Positions 43,097 through 48,496 of a stretch of 64,000 nt of DNA are shown one piece after another. Positions within the stretch are counted from its first letter, which is position 1; each line of letters opens with the position of its first letter. The DNA comes from Armatimonadota bacterium (GTDB taxonomy: Bacteria > Armatimonadota > UBA5829), in assembly GCA_052035525.1 (NCBI GenBank), contig JBPOHN010000012.1, forward strand, positions 208,784 through 272,783, written 5' to 3'. The translations under genes and the position numbers were made by a program. Below the pieces are notes generated by a model. It saw nothing but the letters and a program-made list of their open reading frames with translations. It ran no database searches and was not told the DNA's origin.

Positions 43097-43534
43097 TCAG
43101 CTAGACCAAAGATCGTCCAGTGCCGATCTGGCCGCTGATAGAACGCGTTGCGAGACCCAGAGCGAGGATTCGTGTGCAAGCCGATCCAGCAGCGCCTCAG
43201 TGTCTTCCCTACTCACTAAGCCGCTGATGGCTGCCCACAGCACGATGCCTACCGTGCCGTGAGCTTCGATACCGACGGACTCGGCGAAGATACGAGCCGC
43301 CGAATCGTCCGTGAGGTACCAGTCCGCAGCAATCTGGCGAGCTAATGCCACTGAGTGCGCTTCGCCCCTGTGCAGGATTCCGGACGTCTCCCATGCGGAC
43401 GCCGTGTCGGCTGAGGCAGGTGTGAGAGTAACGATCTGAAGCCAGTCGGGTTTGTTGGACGACCAATGTGGGGCGAGGACGTCGAGTTCCTCAACCACTG
43501 CTGCTGGTATCACGACCTGGCCGACTGAACTCAC
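43097..43534 (-). CDS. DUF3368 (PIN-like) toxin candidate
   Basis: ...HRGEAHSVALARQIAADWYLTDDSAARIFAESVGIE...GIVLWA... is typical DUF3368. Paired with an upstream UPF0175 gene. Confidence 0.6.
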   Translation of the reverse strand: MSSVGQVVIPAAVVEELDVLAPHWSSNKPDWLQIVTLTPASADTASAWETSGILHRGEAHSVALARQIAADWYLTDDSAARIFAESVGIEAHGTVGIVLWAAISGLVSREDTEALLDRLAHESSLWVSQRVLSAARSALDDLWSS

Positions 43535-43595
43535 AGATCAAGCCGATCTATCTCGGCGAGATGGAGCAACGGCCCCGTGTCGGAGACAGCGGTTT

Positions 43596-43799
43596 TCATT
43601 GTTCCTGACGCTTCTGCTTGCGCGCCCAAGCGATATCCTCCAGCTGGAAACGCTCGGAGAGCAAGGGCTCGTGGTTCTGGATGTATTTCAGCAGCGCGAA
43701 GCGAATGGCCTCTTCCTCTGAGTTGAAGAACCCGGCGCGCATCAGCGCGTCAAGCTCGCTAGCAAGTCTGTCGTTCAACTGGACTTGAACTGTCTTCAT
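43596..43799 (-). CDS. UPF0175-family antitoxin candidate
   Basis: 67 aa; MKTVQVQLNDRLASELDALMRAGFFNSEEEAIRFALLKYI has the RHH-like UPF0175 signature. Confidence 0.6.
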   Translation of the reverse strand: MKTVQVQLNDRLASELDALMRAGFFNSEEEAIRFALLKYIQNHEPLLSERFQLEDIAWARKQKRQEQ

Positions 43800-43896
43800 C
43801 GGGGACCTCCGGTCGGATACAACTACGTTCTACCACATCTCGCTACCGGGCTTGTCTGGGAGAGAAATCGGGATGCTCGTCGCTTGCTTCAGTGAC

Positions 43897-44658
43897 CTAA
43901 GTGGGCGGTGGGTCTGAGTCTTTGCGAGCTATGAGTATCATTCTGTGGGACTGGCGGGTGAGGACAGAGGAATCGTATCCTCCGTAGGCTTGCTGGATCG
44001 TGAGGCCGGCTCGTCGGAGCATTTTCTGGATTTCGGTGTAGGTGTAGAGGCGGAGGGAGTGGGTGGTGTCGGTTCGGCGACCATCGTTGTGGATGGTTAC
44101 CTCGTGAGCGTTAAGACGCCCGGTGAGGGGGTCGAACTCGCGCTCCGAGAGTAGCAGATCACCGCGCGCATTCTCGCTCCATTCTATCGGACGGAAGTCC
44201 GCCATCAGCCCAAACGGGTTGAGGATGTCCAGGAAAAGCGAACCGCCTCCCTTAAGAGCCAGGGAGGCGGCGTTTATGACTTTTCGGTCCTCGTCATCGG
44301 TCTCAAGGTAGCCGAACGAGGTGAACATGCTAATCACGGCGTCGAACTCGCTAGTGAAGCCGATCTCGCGCATGTCGGCGTGTACAAGGGTCGGGTTGAT
44401 CCCCTCGGCGGCGGCAGCGGTCTTGCACTTCTCGAGCATATACTCGGAGAGGTCAAGCCCGACAACATCATAGCCGCGGCGAGCGAGATCGATCAGATGC
44501 CTGCCCTGCCCGCAGCAGAGATCAAGCACCTTCGCGCCCGGCTCGAGGGCTAGCTTGTCGATGACGAAATCAACCTGTGCGCGGCTGGTCTCGCTCTCGA
44601 CGTACCTGTCGAACCTTGCCGGGTCTTCGGCTGCGAATAGATCCTTGTACCACGTCAT
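43897..44658 (-). CDS. Class I SAM-dependent methyltransferase
   Basis: VLDLCCGQGRHLIDLARRGYDVVGLDLS (motif I). Confidence 0.85.
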   Translation of the reverse strand: MTWYKDLFAAEDPARFDRYVESETSRAQVDFVIDKLALEPGAKVLDLCCGQGRHLIDLARRGYDVVGLDLSEYMLEKCKTAAAAEGINPTLVHADMREIGFTSEFDAVISMFTSFGYLETDDEDRKVINAASLALKGGGSLFLDILNPFGLMADFRPIEWSENARGDLLLSEREFDPLTGRLNAHEVTIHNDGRRTDTTHSLRLYTYTEIQKMLRRAGLTIQQAYGGYDSSVLTRQSHRMILIARKDSDPPPT

Positions 44659-44719
44659 GGTAGTCTCCTCTCAGGTATTAGCCCTTGGCTGTTAGCGATC
44701 AGCGACGGCTAATGGCTCA

Positions 44720-44952
44720 AAAAACAAAAAGACCGCGGGAGTTCTCTCTCCGCGGCCTTTGGAAGTTTGCTTGTCTGAGTGTTACCAGTTACCAGATAAT
44801 GCCTGCTCCCTCCAGCCGCGATGCACGGGTAGTGCTAATAATGACGTGCATAAGCGCAACCAGGCCGCACTGCGGCTTGGCATACTTAACGCCGGCGTTA
44901 TTGAGCTGGAAGGACTGTATACTCATTGTCTTATGCTACGATTATCGGTCGT
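44720..44952 (-). ncRNA. Candidate ~230-nt small RNA of unknown class, with its own promoter and intrinsic terminator
   Basis: On the minus strand: -35 TTGACA (plus coordinates 44984-44989), 18-nt spacer, -10 TAAAAT (44960-44965). Terminator GCCGCGG-agagagaactc-CCGCGG (44731-44757) followed by UUUUUGUUUUUU. The 450-bp gap has lower GC and several internal hairpins (AACGCCGGCGUU; GCCGCaguGCGGC; AUGCACG...CGUGCAU). Confidence 0.35.
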
Positions 44953-45111
44953 ATGCTGCATTTTACCCAGTAGGTAGCAGACTTGTCAAGCTTTTTTTGT
45001 CTGGCGTGCGGAGCATGGAAGCCCGGAAGGTAGAAAGCTGGAAGAACGGGCCCAAATCTCTGTCTCGCACATTTCTGGCTTTCCGGCTTCCACGCTGAAG
45101 AAGACCTTCGC

Positions 45112-46047
45112 TCACCGCGGAGCCTTGCGGATGTAGACGGAGACGCCGGGGTAGGTGTTGGCGAGCGCGCGGCCCTTCTTATCACCAAGGACGCTGATGG
45201 CGGTCGAGAGGCCGTCGGAGGTGACGCCGTTTGGCGCAACGACGGTGACCGCGATCCTGTCGGTGAGGCCGAGGCCGGTTCTTGGGTCTACGATGTGCGA
45301 ATACCTCTTGCCGCCGATCTCAACGAACTGCTCAGTATCGCCTGATGATGACACGGCTGAGTTGGAGAGCGCAAGCATTCTGGGCTTGTCCAAGGATCGC
45401 GCCGCGTCTGCGTTGGCAATCTCGATCTCCCAGCCCTTCTTGCCAGGCGGCGGGCCGCTGACGACGATATCGCCGCCCATCTCCACAAGGGCACTCTTGA
45501 TTCCGTTAGCTTTGAGGGTGCGGATGGCCTCATCGCAGGCGTAGCCCTTGGCGATCCCGCCCAGATCGAGCTGCATTCCCGGCGTATCGAGCCTGACACG
45601 GGAGCCGATCGGATCGATGTGGACCTTCCGCCATCCGACAAGCTTGCGCGCCGCGGCGAGTTCATCCTTCGGTGGCAGTGTTCCCGCCTTGCGCGCCTTG
45701 CGCCAGAGCTTCACGACCGGGCCGATCGTCACATCGAATGCGCCGTTGGATCGCCGCGAGAGGTCCTGAGACTTGCGCAATATGAACAGCAGATCAGGGC
45801 TCACTTTGACCGCAGGCCCACCGGATGCCGCGGATAGACGCATCAGCTCGGAGTCCGGCCGATAATCGCTCATTGCGTCCTCAAGCTGCGCGATTCTGTC
45901 ATAAGCCGCCTTTGCTGACTTTTCGGCAGTAGATTCGTCAGGGGCGTACAGCACGATCCGCGCCCGCACGCCCATTGCGATCTCGGCGTACTCGAAGCGG
46001 TGCTGACCGTGCGCAACGGATGCTGTGGCTATGAGCAGGGCTAGCAT
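45112..46047 (-). CDS. apbE: FAD:protein FMN transferase
   Basis: ApbE family (...GGIAKGYA...). Start at MLALLIATASVAHG, a signal or lipoprotein-like N-terminus. Confidence 0.85.
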   Translation of the reverse strand: MLALLIATASVAHGQHRFEYAEIAMGVRARIVLYAPDESTAEKSAKAAYDRIAQLEDAMSDYRPDSELMRLSAASGGPAVKVSPDLLFILRKSQDLSRRSNGAFDVTIGPVVKLWRKARKAGTLPPKDELAAARKLVGWRKVHIDPIGSRVRLDTPGMQLDLGGIAKGYACDEAIRTLKANGIKSALVEMGGDIVVSGPPPGKKGWEIEIANADAARSLDKPRMLALSNSAVSSSGDTEQFVEIGGKRYSHIVDPRTGLGLTDRIAVTVVAPNGVTSDGLSTAISVLGDKKGRALANTYPGVSVYIRKAPR

Positions 46048-46191
46048 GGCCCAGCGAATGAACTCGCGGCTACGAGGGCGCAAAGTCCACCTCCGTGGAC
46101 CGGGGATTTGGATTCTCGGAGGGGGTCGCAAAGACCCCCTCTGACTGGATACGTAGATGCTGAGTCAAGTTCAGCATGACGGCCTAATCGG

Positions 46192-47112
46192 TTAGGCTTT
46201 CCGCCACTGCTCGCGCAGGAACTTCACCGACTTCGGCATCTCTACTTCTACATCGCCTACGCAGCCGCACTCGAAGCTGCAGAAGTCCTGGTAGTTAAGC
46301 ATCTTCAGGCCCTTGAAGCCGTTTCTGTAGTCGCGCTCGTCCTGGCCGGGCAGGTTACGCTTGATGGAGGCCAGGTGAACGTGGTGCAGCATGTCGCCGC
46401 CGGAGAGGAACGCGCCCATGTCGCTGGTTTCCTCAATATACATGTGGTAGAAATCGCCCATCACGCAAGCGGCCGGGTGGTTCACGTCCCGGCAGATGGC
46501 AGCCGCATCGGCGACCAGCCTCACATACCACGTTTCGCGGCGGTTCAGGGGCTCAAGAAGCATGCGCGTCCCGTGCTTGTGCGCGAACTCGCAGAGCTCA
46601 GGCAGCAGGTCCAGGAGCACTTTACGGCCCTCGATGTGGTCGAGCTTCGTCTGGCCGTTGAACGCAGGGACGAAGATCAGGCCGGTGGAGCCAATCGCGC
46701 CTGCCGCTTCCAGAATGACCTTCATCGACTCCACGCACTTCTTCCGAACTGCCGGGTCATCGCTCATCAGAGCGCCCTCGAACCCGGCGCAGACCGCGCT
46801 CATCTGGATCTTCGAGTTCTTCAGCGCCGCGTTGATCTCCTCAACCCGATTCTGGAGCCCACGGCCACCGACCTCGATCCCGTCGATGTCCCACGCTTCC
46901 ATCTTCGCCAGCTTCTCGGGCAGGTCCTTACCGGGCACCCGGCCTTCCTGGCTCGCTATCTTCAGCACGGCTCGTTTCGGCTTCGCTGTCTTCCGCGGAC
47001 CAACCAGTCCGGTATCCTCAACTCCAGCTTGAGCACCGCTGGCAAGCCCAGCAACAACTGCCGCGCTGCCTATCGCACCCATAGCCAGCAACTCGCGTCT
47101 ACTCACTTCCAT
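46192..47112 (-). CDS. Tat-secreted sugar-phosphate isomerase/epimerase (xylose-isomerase-like TIM barrel)
   Basis: MEVSRRELLAMGAIGSAAVVAGLASGAQA has a Tat signal; AP-endonuclease-2/XylA-like barrel. Confidence 0.8.
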   Translation of the reverse strand: MEVSRRELLAMGAIGSAAVVAGLASGAQAGVEDTGLVGPRKTAKPKRAVLKIASQEGRVPGKDLPEKLAKMEAWDIDGIEVGGRGLQNRVEEINAALKNSKIQMSAVCAGFEGALMSDDPAVRKKCVESMKVILEAAGAIGSTGLIFVPAFNGQTKLDHIEGRKVLLDLLPELCEFAHKHGTRMLLEPLNRRETWYVRLVADAAAICRDVNHPAACVMGDFYHMYIEETSDMGAFLSGGDMLHHVHLASIKRNLPGQDERDYRNGFKGLKMLNYQDFCSFECGCVGDVEVEMPKSVKFLREQWRKA

Positions 47113-47203
47113 TTTCCAAGCCTCCAGTTTGGAGCTGTTAGCCGTCAGCAATTAGCTGGAGCGTTTGGTTCCTGCTAACGGCCGACAGCTAATCGCTAAT
47201 GGC

Positions 47204-48496
47204 TTATATGAACTGCGTCTTTCCCGGCACCGCGACCGGCGGTACGGGAAGTGGGCCGAGTTCGAGCACATCCGGCATCAGGTTCTCTTTGGAGTTGATA
47301 GCCTGCTCCCAGGTGATCTCCTGGCCGGTATACGCCGACATCCTGCCCATAATGGCAGTCATGCAGCTTTCGGCGACCTGCTGAGCCTCGTTAAGAGGAG
47401 TGCCCGCGCGGATGCTGGCTATCAGGTCCTTGTGCTCCTGCTGATATGGGCTGGGGTTGGGGCCGGTGTAGTTCCACGCGCGGCCTCTATCCTTATCGCG
47501 CAAGATCATGTCAGCGCAGTTGGAAACGCCCTTCTTGCCCTGGACGAACTCGGATACCTTGTTGGCGCAGCCGTCGATCTGGCGGCACATGCTGAGCACT
47601 CGCGCGCCGTTGGGGTATTCGAAGTGGACTGTGAAGTGATCGTAGATGTGCCCGTAGGCGGGATCGGTCCTGACCTCTCTGCCGCCGAAGCCGATAGCCT
47701 TGACGGGGTGTGAACCGATCACCCAGTTCATCACGTCGATGTTGTGGACGTGCTGCTCGCAGATGTGGTCGCCCGAGAGCCAGGTGAAATACAGCCAGTT
47801 GCGAACTTGCCACTCCATATCGCTCCATTCGGGCTTGCGGCCGTGGTTCCAGAGTCCGCCCTGGTTCCAGTAGCACTGGCCGCTGATGATCTCGCCGATC
47901 GCGCCGTCGTGGATCTTCCGTATCGTCTCCACGTAGCCGGCCTGATGTCTGCGCTGCGTTCCTGCCACAATCCCAAGGCCCTTCTGCTTCGCCATCTCGC
48001 CCGCGGCTATGACCGTCCTGACCCCGGGTGCATCGACCGCGACCGGTTTCTCCATGAACACATGCTTGCCGGCCTGCACCGCAGCTTTCAGATGCGTAGG
48101 CCTGAAGCCGGGGGGCGATGCGAGAATGACCATGTCAACGCCGGCTGCTATGACCTTCTTGTAGTTGTCGAACCCGGTGAAGCATCGGTCTCTGGTGATG
48201 TCCACTTTGCCCTTGAGGTTTTCATCCTGGGTAAAGCTCTGGAAGGCGCTATCGACCCTGTCCTGGAACAGATCGCCCAGCGCGACGATCTTGACTCCAC
48301 TGGATGTCAATGCGTCGCGCGCCGCGCCTTTTCCGCGACCACCGCAGCCGATAAGACCGACCCGGATCACGTCCGAACCTGCCGCATGCACTCCCTGGCC
48401 AAGGACCATCGGGCCCGCGCCGGCAATCACCGCTACTGCCGCGGAACTCTTGAGGAAATCCCTGCGGGACATGCCATCAGTCTGATTAGAACTCAT
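47204..48496 (-). CDS. Tat-secreted Gfo/Idh/MocA-family oxidoreductase
   Basis: MSRRDFLKSSAAVAVIAGAG (Tat), then VGLIGCGGRGKGAA Rossmann. Confidence 0.85.
   Translation of the reverse strand: MSSNQTDGMSRRDFLKSSAAVAVIAGAGPMVLGQGVHAAGSDVIRVGLIGCGGRGKGAARDALTSSGVKIVALGDLFQDRVDSAFQSFTQDENLKGKVDITRDRCFTGFDNYKKVIAAGVDMVILASPPGFRPTHLKAAVQAGKHVFMEKPVAVDAPGVRTVIAAGEMAKQKGLGIVAGTQRRHQAGYVETIRKIHDGAIGEIISGQCYWNQGGLWNHGRKPEWSDMEWQVRNWLYFTWLSGDHICEQHVHNIDVMNWVIGSHPVKAIGFGGREVRTDPAYGHIYDHFTVHFEYPNGARVLSMCRQIDGCANKVSEFVQGKKGVSNCADMILRDKDRGRAWNYTGPNPSPYQQEHKDLIASIRAGTPLNEAQQVAESCMTAIMGRMSAYTGQEITWEQAINSKENLMPDVLELGPLPVPPVAVPGKTQFI

Follow-up and report, generated by a model that had tools for sequence, protein, structure and literature searches.

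The low-GC gap between apbE and a methyltransferase gene in the window (the whole 64,000-nt stretch of Armatimonadota DNA analysed here) raises the question of whether it encodes an independent small RNA, as a sequence-only reading had proposed, or a regulatory element belonging to one of its neighbors. The drop in GC content is real, albeit smaller than the 48% versus 63% originally given, with values of 0.49-0.55 for the region and ~0.59-0.66 for its flanks. Findings discussed below support the view that the gap specifies a conserved, structured and previously unannotated RNA of ~230 nt belonging to no known family, as that reading held, while an independent sRNA is not the best account of it. 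Most likely, the element is instead a regulatory leader of the downstream methyltransferase gene in a group of Armatimonadota, in which a short conserved ORF is combined with a terminator that can be switched.

A promoter, a terminator and the RNA between them

The near-consensus minus-strand promoter proposed for this gap was borne out. It is of the sigma-70 type (44960-44989, minus strand), consisting of TTGACA at 44989-44984 and TAAAAT at 44965-44960 separated by an 18-nt spacer, and matches the consensus at 11 of 12 positions. The upstream A-tract was likewise confirmed as an A7 run on the same strand (44998-44992) positioned just 5' of the -35 box, resembling an UP element. No other minus-strand promoter-like site was found between 43500 and 46500. 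Based on the position of the -10 box, transcription would start at ~44954, and the first structure in the RNA is a 5' leader hairpin (UACGA-CCGAUAA-UCGUA, 44937-44953, minus strand) identified as helix 1 of the alignment and in the fold. The strong intrinsic terminator expected ~230 nt downstream is located at 44719-44760 of the minus strand (-21.8 kcal/mol); its stem, AAAGGCCGCGGAG/CUCCCGCGGUCUUU, is arranged as GGCCGCGGAG-AGAGAA-CUCCCGCGGUC and is followed by a U5GU6 tract. A consensus terminator scan missed this terminator solely because of a one-base bulge in the stem. The RNA of ~235 nt bounded by these two signals has a minimum free energy (MFE) of -80.8 kcal/mol and a z-score of -3.17 relative to dinucleotide shuffles, in agreement with the stable folding noted earlier. 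Two CUUCC motifs are exposed in this RNA, and the element is present in a single copy in the window.

Scanning the whole window against Rfam at the gathering threshold returned no matches, and the same was true of 10 orthologous loci. At E≤10, the locus itself returned noise alone (His_leader, SraC, miRNA), and the element has no entry in Rfam 15. The covariance models for 6S RNA, tmRNA, RNase P and SRP failed to match it at either the gathering threshold or E≤10, so that the earlier failure to place it in these families by eye extends to every other Rfam family.

Linkage to an NmbA-like methyltransferase gene

We recovered 10 further distinct versions of the element from Armatimonadota metagenomes and MAGs. 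In all 11 versions the element immediately precedes an orthologous class I SAM methyltransferase gene located on the same strand, the products of these genes sharing 61-81% amino acid identity. The element was present in 10 of the 11 methyltransferase orthologue loci examined, together with six different upstream neighbors that include ApbE, a NAT/GNAT protein, a hypothetical protein and, on the opposite strand, an M16 peptidase and a creatininase. Both the element and the methyltransferase were absent from 160 apbE-centered loci of other species (GTDB genomes and JGI metagenomes), which retain the GFO-TIM barrel-ApbE operon; the one apbE-centered locus that carries the element, L097, is from the same organism as the window. 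Their absence from these 160 loci rules out the element as a 3' feature of apbE. Conservation of the apbE-methyltransferase gap had been suggested as a check, and the whole unit proved to be conserved in 10 other distinct loci, tied to the methyltransferase and never to apbE. A scan of viral contigs using the segment 3/terminator pattern described below returned no matches. A long hairpin located after apbE (45012-45096) is common to just 2 other loci, and is therefore not part of the core element.

The signals that delimit the RNA are conserved as well. The promoter was found in all 10 other loci as TTGACA-17/18-TA[A/G]AAT or TAAGAT, and the A-tract was kept as A5-A7 in most of them; the spacer motif CTACTGGG is conserved too. 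The 33-nt 5' UTR, which lacks a Shine-Dalgarno sequence, displayed almost no variation among closer homologues, and the terminator was conserved in all versions, with a weak U-tract in L186 only. The spacer separating terminator and gene (44659-44718, minus strand) is not conserved, and ranges from ~14 to 110 nt in homologues; in the window it contains the Shine-Dalgarno sequence of the methyltransferase gene (GAGGAG, 44670-44665) and no promoter-like site. No intergenic region contained a sigma-70-like site other than that of the element, and none was found between terminator and gene. In L177 the U-tract abuts the ribosome-binding site of the methyltransferase gene (TTTTTTGTTTTTTGGAGGAGGTAATTATTATG), and L186 is similar, leaving no room for a separate gene promoter in either locus.

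These results bear directly on the view that the element is an independent, trans-acting sRNA of ~235 nt with a constitutive terminator, the methyltransferase gene being expressed by leak-through or from an unrecognized promoter. Such an sRNA could act on other mRNAs, for example through pairing of its CUUCC motifs with GGAGG-type ribosome-binding sites. The near-consensus promoter and strong terminator conserved in all versions, the stable fold, the two exposed CUUCC motifs, and a terminated leader as the predicted default product are each consistent with this view. However, the element was never seen apart from the methyltransferase gene, L177 and L186 leave no space for a promoter of that gene, and 2 features described below, a conserved antiterminator and a maintained reading frame, would be needless for a constitutive terminator and a non-coding RNA, respectively. 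Because of this linkage, the lack of a promoter-like site belonging to the gene, the conserved antiterminator and a frame that runs across the switch, an independent sRNA is not the best reading, and we hold it to be rather improbable.

The linked gene (43897-44658, minus strand) encodes a 253 aa class I SAM-dependent methyltransferase that is 40% identical over 211 aa (E 5e-38, PDB 9ri2) to the 266 aa NmbA of C. tepidum, suggesting that it is a candidate member of the bacillithiol N-methyltransferase (NmbA) family. Hammerstad et al. assign proteins to this family based on E≤1e-20, coverage >80%, identity >25% and a comparable length, and on whether the genome also carries bshA, bshB and bshC (PMC12719100); with respect to sequence, the values obtained here (E 5e-38, 40% over 211 of 253 aa) lie within these limits. 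Roughly 440 homologues of the methyltransferase were found. An NCBIfam equivalog for the protein was not found, nor was any match to an rRNA-methyltransferase family. Similarity to RiPP methyltransferases was weak (NF041820, 76.8 bits versus a cutoff of 175; also CypM), and the protein is much nearer to NmbA than to any of them. A BioC/BioH reading of the methyltransferase-esterase pair was rejected, since BioC models scored far under their cutoffs. The biosynthesis and functional role of N-methyl-bacillithiol are still largely unknown (PMC12719100), and the NmbA paper PMC6282198 makes no mention of transcripts or riboswitches.

Mutually exclusive pairings and the leader reading frame

Three segments of the RNA underlie the switch, in which formation of the antiterminator is mutually exclusive with both P1 and the terminator. 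Segment 1 (UCCUUCCAGC, 44905-44914, minus strand), identified by fold and alignment, forms the 5' strand of P1, which acts as an anti-antiterminator. Segment 2 (CGCGGCUGGAGGGAG, 44806-44820, minus strand) is the switching strand, able to pair with either segment 1 in P1 or segment 3. Segment 3 (CUUCCAAAGGCCGCG, 44751-44765, minus strand) is the 3' strand of the antiterminator, and overlaps the 5' arm of the terminator. In all 11 versions CGCGGCYGGAGGGAG of segment 2 was the single best partner of segment 3, with energies of -20 to -26.5 kcal/mol compared to -9 to -17 kcal/mol for the next-best partner, and in 10 of the 11 this energy was matched by at most 2 of 200 shuffles. The antiterminator was the MFE fold of transcripts ending just past the 5' arm of the terminator in each of the 10 versions folded, while the full-length RNA folded as P1 plus the terminator; antiterminator and terminator are of comparable stability. 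Within the alignment, 94% of antiterminator cells were paired, compared to 32-55% after sliding the partner columns. Covariation support is nevertheless modest, as the 11 sequences represent one clade in which the majority of pairs in the antiterminator and terminator show no variation. The stretch GGAGGGAGCAGGC (GGAGGGAG), for which a resemblance to SRP domain IV had been suggested, turned out to be the antiterminator 5' strand, namely segment 2.

The helices upstream of the switch are conserved to varying degrees. Segment 1 occupies the same position, and P1 lies at codons ~4.5-9 of the leader ORF discussed below, in 8 of the 11 versions; P1 is placed differently in L177, L186 and L191, its alternative partner being still within the ORF in L177 and L191, and outside it in L186. 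The P2 hairpin (GCCAAGCCGC-AGU-GCGGCCUGG, 44859-44881, minus strand), supported by compensatory pairs in the alignment, differs in sequence among versions yet is retained as a hairpin, which occupies the same position in 9 of 11, and the length of its domain is 53 nt in 8 of 11. Alignment pair 93-103 within P2 is CG in 5 versions and GC in 3-4. The P3 hairpin (AUGCACG ... CGUGCAU, 44821-44851, minus strand; alignment helix 5) carries the conserved loop motif UUAUUA(CC), with 89% of its alignment cells paired and compensatory changes at 2 pairs. In L186, P3 was lost by an in-frame deletion that retained the ORF.

In contrast to the sequence-only reading, which held that the transcript contains no ORF, an ORF of 45 codons with an ATG start and a TAA stop (MSIQSFQLNNAGVKYAKPQCGLVALMHVIISTTRASRLEGAGIIW; 44926-44789, minus strand) lies within it and is conserved in every homologue. 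Its start and stop codons were present in all 11 versions, with overall lengths of 35-48 codons. Across the 10 versions tested there was no stop in the leader frame, compared to totals of 16 and 23 in the other two. Gaps within the ORF measured 3, 6, 3, 3, 6, 6 and 3 nt. A further gap, found in L186, measured 28 nt, but the ORF of this version is shorter by 10 codons (30 nt) overall, indicating that the frame was held. Gaps outside it measured 4, 1, 2, 1, 1 and 5 nt in the 5' UTR and 3, 4, 1, 2, 3, 2 and 1 nt in the 3' part. In every version the stop codon falls within the antiterminator loop. Segment 1 corresponds to codons ~5-8 of the ORF and segment 2 to codons ~36-41.

The maintained frame raises the possibility that the ORF is a small-protein gene whose 45 aa product is functional, for example as a RiPP-like substrate of the methyltransferase encoded before a leaky terminator, or as a small toxin. 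Conservation of its start, stop and frame, the fact that gene callers called it as a gene in several public assemblies, and the weak similarity of the methyltransferase to RiPP enzymes described above point in this direction. The pattern of substitution does not: the dN/dS ratio of ~1 indicates that protein-type selection does not act on the peptide, identity at codon positions 1, 2 and 3 was 0.63, 0.60 and 0.63, without codon periodicity, and synonymous and non-synonymous codon differences numbered 62 and 455, respectively. Furthermore, the ORF lacks a Shine-Dalgarno sequence, a Pfam search of its 45 aa product yielded no match, no other maturation genes are nearby, and RiPP enzymes are far less similar to the methyltransferase than NmbA is. 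We consider a functional small protein very improbable, and rejected it based on the dN/dS ratio, the absence of codon periodicity and of a Shine-Dalgarno sequence, and the Pfam result. An exact-protein look-up retrieved just near-identical copies from the same species. On the plus strand, antisense ORFs at 44685-45098 and 44759-44977 gave no Pfam match; they were discounted as genes, since a sense frame that is open usually has such a mirror image on the opposite strand.

The leader ORF changes more slowly at synonymous sites than the methyltransferase gene (dS of 0.11-0.76 versus 0.53-1.14), which together with the compensatory changes in P2 and P3 argues for constraint at the level of the RNA. 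None of the 11 leader ORFs is preceded by a Shine-Dalgarno sequence, whereas that of the methyltransferase gene is strong, suggesting that leader translation may be weak or absent. In the peptide alignments, regulatory codons did not occur in tandem within segment 1. Given this and the dN/dS ratio, neither amino acid sensing nor an arrest peptide is evident. Sensing through Met, Cys or branched-chain amino acid codons was specifically rejected, as these alignments, inspected by eye, contained no tandem codons and a Cys content that was judged unremarkable. A stretch rich in V, I, T and L at codons 27-35 adjoins segment 2.

A putative attenuator and its relation to known systems

Judging from the sequence and its alignment, we propose, with about an even chance of being right, that the element is a 5' leader and transcription attenuator, probably ribosome-mediated, for the NmbA-like methyltransferase gene. 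According to this model, transcription would begin at the element's strong promoter and by default end at the terminator ~235 nt on, giving rise to a short RNA. Read-through into the methyltransferase gene would require the antiterminator, in which pairing of segments 2 and 3 sequesters the 5' arm of the terminator, and segment 2 would normally be held by segment 1 (CUUCCAGC) in P1. The ORF, which starts 33 nt from the predicted transcription start, spans segment 1, P2, P3 and segment 2, its stop codon falling within the antiterminator loop. In the absence of translation, P1 and the terminator would form and the gene would be off; a ribosome positioned at the stop codon would occupy the antiterminator loop, leaving the gene off as well. 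Stalling at an earlier point in the ORF would instead cause the ribosome to break P1 and free segment 2, allowing the antiterminator to form and turning the gene on. We infer translation of the ORF, conditional termination and the direction of the switch alike. The terminated leader could accumulate as a small RNA. The sequence-only reading had named as evidence against itself a promoter that drives the methyltransferase gene through a long 5' leader whose hairpin is not a terminator; we essentially favor the first part of this scenario, while the hairpin would still be a terminator, albeit a conditional one.

This proposed attenuator resembles those of amino acid operons (trpL, hisL, thrL and pheL; Rfam His_leader and others) in its promoter-proximal position on the strand of the regulated gene, in its short ORF over the first pairing segment, in its 1:2, 2:3 and 3:4 pairings with the intrinsic terminator last, and in a stop codon sited where a ribosome ending translation would block the antiterminator. 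It does not match their sequences or models, as its His_leader score of 19 bits (gathering threshold of 49) derives mainly from the terminator. In contrast to these leaders, its ORF is long (35-48 codons) and without a Shine-Dalgarno sequence, regulatory codons do not form a run in segment 1, and the element precedes a methyltransferase gene rather than a biosynthetic operon. In antibiotic-responsive leaders such as those of erm and B. subtilis yxjB (RlmA-II), ribosome stalling in the leader peptide prevents termination and leads to induction (PMC6851288). The element shares with these leaders an ORF and a terminator 5' of a SAM-dependent methyltransferase gene. It differs in that its gene encodes an NmbA-like, putative small-molecule N-methyltransferase, and in that no conserved arrest peptide is evident.

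The element also resembles terminator-type OFF riboswitches such as SAM-I, with which it shares a domain closed by P1 and a P1 3' strand that alternates with an antiterminator competing with the terminator. It may thus be a riboswitch-like or factor-dependent leader in which the P1-enclosed domain (P2, P3, the conserved AAUA, UAUGCACGUCA and UUAUUACC) is the sensor and the ORF is irrelevant or secondary. Its ligand could be an NmbA-related metabolite (a thiol, SAM or SAH) or a protein, binding of which would stabilize P1 and favor termination. The gene linkage and the alternation of antiterminator and terminator, the three-helix domain that the alignment predicts to be closed by P1, conservation of nucleotides that reaches synonymous sites, the constant domain length, particularly that of the P2 region, and an ORF without a Shine-Dalgarno sequence are all in keeping with such a sensor. 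However, the element matches no known riboswitch class or aptamer, and its P1, at 10 bp and GC-rich, is unusually long and stable and should form without ligand. The domain is furthermore crossed by an ORF whose frame was held through at least 7 indels, which would not be required of an RNA-only sensor, and a ligand pocket is unlikely to tolerate either the in-frame loss of P3 with its conserved loop in L186 or the relocated P1 partner in L177 and L191. For these reasons we regard a riboswitch-like sensor as possible but unlikely.

Whichever form it takes, the leader would be a compact, strongly conserved two-state element before a gene whose closest characterized relative makes N-methyl-bacillithiol, and confirmation of the switch would provide a handle on the timing of redox-buffer modification in these barely studied bacteria. 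One speculative and rather doubtful extension is that the leader is a new sensor that, as a riboswitch of a new class or as a novel type of 45-codon translated leader lacking a Shine-Dalgarno sequence, couples low-molecular-weight-thiol, redox or methyl-donor state to N-methyl-bacillithiol synthesis. If so, no RNA-based regulator of bacillithiol metabolism, and no family of cis-regulatory RNAs from Armatimonadota, would have been described before it; our literature search found no paper connecting Armatimonadota with riboswitches. The element likewise offers a test case for attenuation via a long leader ORF devoid of a Shine-Dalgarno sequence or obvious regulatory codons, and it accounts for a 45 aa 'hypothetical protein' call that recurs in public assemblies.

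Promoter, terminator and transcript

The element lies on the minus strand between apbE and a methyltransferase gene, in a member of the Armatimonadota. Its promoter (TTGACA, 44989-44984; 18-nt spacer; TAAAAT, 44965-44960) matches the sigma-70 consensus at 11/12 positions, is preceded by an A7 tract (44998-44992) upstream of the -35 box, and was the sole minus-strand promoter-like site detected by a promoter scan of 43500-46500. Located ~235 nt past the promoter is an intrinsic terminator, GGCCGCGGAG-AGAGAA-CUCCCGCGGUC followed by U5GU6 (44760-44719, minus strand), whose GC-rich hairpin has a folding energy of -21.8 kcal/mol; only a one-base bulge in its stem kept it from being found by a consensus terminator scan. 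Compared to shuffled sequence, the transcript has a more stable fold (MFE -80.8 kcal/mol; z = -3.17), and the GC content of the element is 0.49-0.55, compared to ~0.59-0.66 in the flanks. These results confirm the promoter- and terminator-bounded folded RNA and the GC dip proposed in the sequence-only reading, which had also failed to recognize a known RNA by eye. A search of the whole window against Rfam 15 returned no family at the gathering threshold, and only noise at E<=10.

The promoter spacer carries a motif, CTACTGGG (44966-44973, minus strand), directly before the -10 box, which is conserved in 9/11 loci (the window and L171-L191, loci fetched from other genomes or metagenomes). This motif may represent an operator or an extended -10-like element, adding control of transcription initiation.

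Gene linkage and the downstream methyltransferase

All neighbouring genes are encoded on the minus strand. Upstream are those for a TAT-signal GFO/IDH/MocA oxidoreductase, a TIM-barrel protein and ApbE; downstream come the gene for the 253-aa class I SAM methyltransferase (44658-43897), one small RHH-like and one DUF3368/PIN-like ORF, and an esterase gene. We retrieved 160 apbE-centred loci, 80 each from GTDB species genomes and JGI metagenomes. The oxidoreductase-TIM barrel-ApbE operon was retained in relatives, with ApbE identities of up to 76%, and no locus possessed the methyltransferase downstream of apbE. Element-like sequence was likewise absent from these loci, except for L097, which represents the same organism. 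The element is not an apbE feature. As to conservation of the gap between the two genes, a point raised by the sequence-only reading, the gap is not kept with apbE, while the element is kept upstream of the methyltransferase, as described below.

The upstream operon (TAT-signal oxidoreductase, xylose-isomerase-like TIM barrel and ApbE; 45112-48496, minus strand) is conserved across Armatimonadota at 65-83% identity (L001-L012, L091-L099), and its synteny breaks exactly at the start of the element. Directly after the apbE stop codon is an imperfect inverted repeat (45012-45096; 34-nt arms, 74% complementary), also found in L171, partly in L191, and absent from the other loci; it may either terminate the upstream operon or constitute a repeat element.

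A protein search identified many homologues of the methyltransferase (47-81% identity). Contigs retrieved for nine of these, and then for one leader peptide, added ten distinct versions of the element to that of the window (L171, L172, L173, L175, L183, L185, L188, L177, L186 and L191), each directly upstream, and on the same strand, of an orthologous methyltransferase (61-81% identity). Their upstream neighbours varied, and included ApbE, a NAT/GNAT protein, a hypothetical protein, an opposite-strand M16 peptidase and an opposite-strand creatininase, among others. The locus of a more distant homologue (L180, 58% identity) was without the element. A profile built from the alignment of the versions, run on the window and the fetched loci, gave a single match to the element in the window, and in the other loci matched only upstream of these methyltransferases.

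The promoter was present in 11/11 versions (TTGACA-17/18-TA[A/G]AAT or TAAGAT), and none of the intergenic regions scanned contained any other sigma-70-like site. The spacer from terminator to gene, ~14 to 110 nt long, was not conserved; the U-tract of L177 continues straight into the methyltransferase Shine-Dalgarno sequence (TTTTTTGTTTTTTGGAGGAGGTAATTATTATG), leaving no space for a second promoter. With no other promoter-like site detected, transcription of the methyltransferase must pass through the terminator, and the element is the 5' leader of this gene. Based on this linkage, the free-standing small RNA put forward in the sequence-only reading, acting purely in trans, is unlikely, though the terminated leader could still act additionally as a small RNA.

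Pfam and NCBIfam returned only generic class I methyltransferase matches for the regulated enzyme, and no equivalog. By far its closest solved structure was PDB 9ri2 (E 5e-38, 40% identity over 211 residues; next-best structure, E 7e-21), the NmbA of Chlorobaculum tepidum, which catalyses N-methylation of the bacillithiol cysteine (PMC12719100; PMC6282198). Judged by the sequence criteria of PMC12719100, the methyltransferase would count as an NmbA homologue, and is probably a member of the NmbA family from Armatimonadota. Neither PMC12719100 nor PMC6282198 describes an RNA regulator of nmbA, and the latter makes no mention of transcripts or riboswitches. In most loci the methyltransferase is followed by the alpha/beta-hydrolase esterase; insertion of a Fur-family regulator and rubrerythrin between the two in L172 and L173 is at least consistent with a redox context. 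In the window this position is occupied by a toxin-antitoxin-like pair (43097-43799, minus strand; 67-aa RHH-like and 145-aa DUF3368/PIN-like ORFs) restricted to its lineage, relatives having other insertions there.

Competing pairings in the leader

We folded the first 10 versions separately, cutting each at the 5' arm of the terminator. All 10 formed an identical antiterminator, in which segment 2 (CGCGGCY-GGA-GGGAG; 44820-44806, minus strand) pairs with segment 3 (CUUCC-AAA-GGCCGCG; 44765-44751, minus strand), taking up the 5' arm of the terminator. The 'SRP-like' GGAGGGAGCAGGC of the sequence-only reading is instead one strand of this switch. In 11/11 versions, no other stretch of the upstream transcript paired as well with segment 3 as segment 2 did (-20 to -26.5 kcal/mol, versus -9 to -17 kcal/mol for the next-best partner). 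Dinucleotide shuffles averaged -12 to -15 kcal/mol in 10/11 versions, with <=2/200 reaching the observed pairing energy; for L186 the mean was -20 kcal/mol, and 11/200 reached it. On the alignment, 94% of antiterminator cells were paired, compared to 32-55% with slid partner columns, and a few compensatory changes were seen. Antiterminator and terminator were computed to be approximately equal in stability.

In the favoured fold of the full-length RNA, segment 2 instead pairs with segment 1 (UCCUUCCAGC, 44914-44905) to form the 10-bp helix P1, and segment 3 is therefore free for the terminator. The location of P1 was the same in 8/11 versions, with other upstream partners used in L177, L186 and L191. 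Between the P1 strands are P2, a hairpin kept while its sequence changes (one pair is CG in 5 versions and GC in 3-4) within a domain of exactly 53 nt in 8/11 versions, and P3 (AUGCACG:CGUGCAU; conserved loop motif UUAUUACC), which was 89% paired with compensatory changes at 2 pairs. Taken together, this 1:2 / 2:3 / 3:4 pairing is the classical architecture of an attenuator or terminator-type OFF switch, and we consider it likely that the element is a transcription attenuator of the methyltransferase gene, a conditional terminator of some kind.

The leader ORF and the mode of control

The view that the RNA contains no ORF was mistaken: it holds a uORF of 45 codons (ATG 44926 to TAA 44789, minus strand). 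The exact 45-aa product was found in public collections, all fetched copies being nearly identical to the window, and a profile of 10 leader peptides retrieved 12 called ORFs of 44-48 aa from a protein collection, including 6 new variants, all unnamed. In 11/11 versions (35-48 codons) the ATG follows the predicted transcription start by ~30-35 nt, and the stop codon, at an equivalent position, falls within the antiterminator loop, 9-14 nt past segment 2. Across the 10 versions tested, stop codons numbered 0 in the uORF frame, and 16 and 23 in the two remaining forward frames. Alignment gaps within the ORF were 3, 6, 3, 3, 6, 6 and 3 nt, plus one of 28 nt in L186, compared to 4, 1, 2, 1, 1 and 5 nt in the 5' UTR and 3, 4, 1, 2, 3, 2 and 1 nt in the 3' part; frame is kept within the ORF and nowhere else in the element. 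The L186 ORF is shorter by 10 codons (30 nt) overall and its frame therefore also holds. This version has lost P3 and the conserved loop to an in-frame deletion, yet retains the ORF.

Identity at uORF codon positions 1, 2 and 3 was 0.63, 0.60 and 0.63, whereas that of the methyltransferase gene was 0.80 at positions 1+2 and 0.55 at position 3. The uORF dN/dS was ~1, and its synonymous change was slower (dS 0.11-0.76, versus 0.53-1.14 for the methyltransferase gene). The peptide is without protein-type selection; selection acts on nucleotide sequence and structure, plus an open frame that extends from segment 1 to segment 2. Such a pattern agrees with a regulatory leader ORF and not with a functional small protein, and a small-protein gene, open frame notwithstanding, is very improbable.

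Ribosome-mediated control is the likeliest sub-mechanism, a proposition we regard as about evenly balanced. We infer that the uORF is translated and termination conditional, with the switch working in the following direction. Without translation, P1 and the terminator would form. A ribosome at the stop codon would cover the antiterminator loop and the 3' end of segment 2, such that the terminator would still form, while one stalled earlier in the ORF would block P1, freeing segment 2 for the antiterminator and permitting read-through. The uORF lacks a Shine-Dalgarno sequence in every version, whereas the methyltransferase gene has a strong one; this, together with conservation at the nucleotide level, would suit the main rival, a ligand- or protein-sensing leader on the identical platform. 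Maintenance of the frame, the high stability of P1 and tolerance of the P3 deletion argue against such sensing, which we consider rather doubtful.

Attenuation by a translating ribosome would employ the same logic as the trp, his, thr and phe leader-peptide attenuators. The element differs from these in its long ORF, lack of a Shine-Dalgarno sequence, and lack of evident regulatory codons or an arrest peptide. It is formally similar to terminator-type OFF riboswitches, and is also similar to drug-responsive leaders controlling methyltransferases, for example that of B. subtilis yxjB (PMC6851288). Rfam scans including the orthologous loci placed it in no curated RNA family, and a literature search found no link between Armatimonadota and riboswitches. 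We regard the element as a new family of cis-regulatory RNA, solid and well delimited, from a phylum that has been little studied.

No regulatory codon run was found in segment 1. Codons ~27-35 (44822-44848, minus strand) are V/I/T/L-rich in all variants (e.g. VIVITVI, VTLITTT, VVLITNV), with differing codons in differing lineages; the stretch may serve as a run of regulatory codons, or simply follow from the sequence of the P3 loop. A 137-aa TTG ORF antisense to the element (44685-45098, plus strand) was rejected as an artefact that mirrors the open sense frame and has no Pfam match. At the uORF stop, this lineage alone carries a 7-nt tandem duplication of CTGGTAA (44782-44795, minus strand), the first copy of which supplies the TAA.
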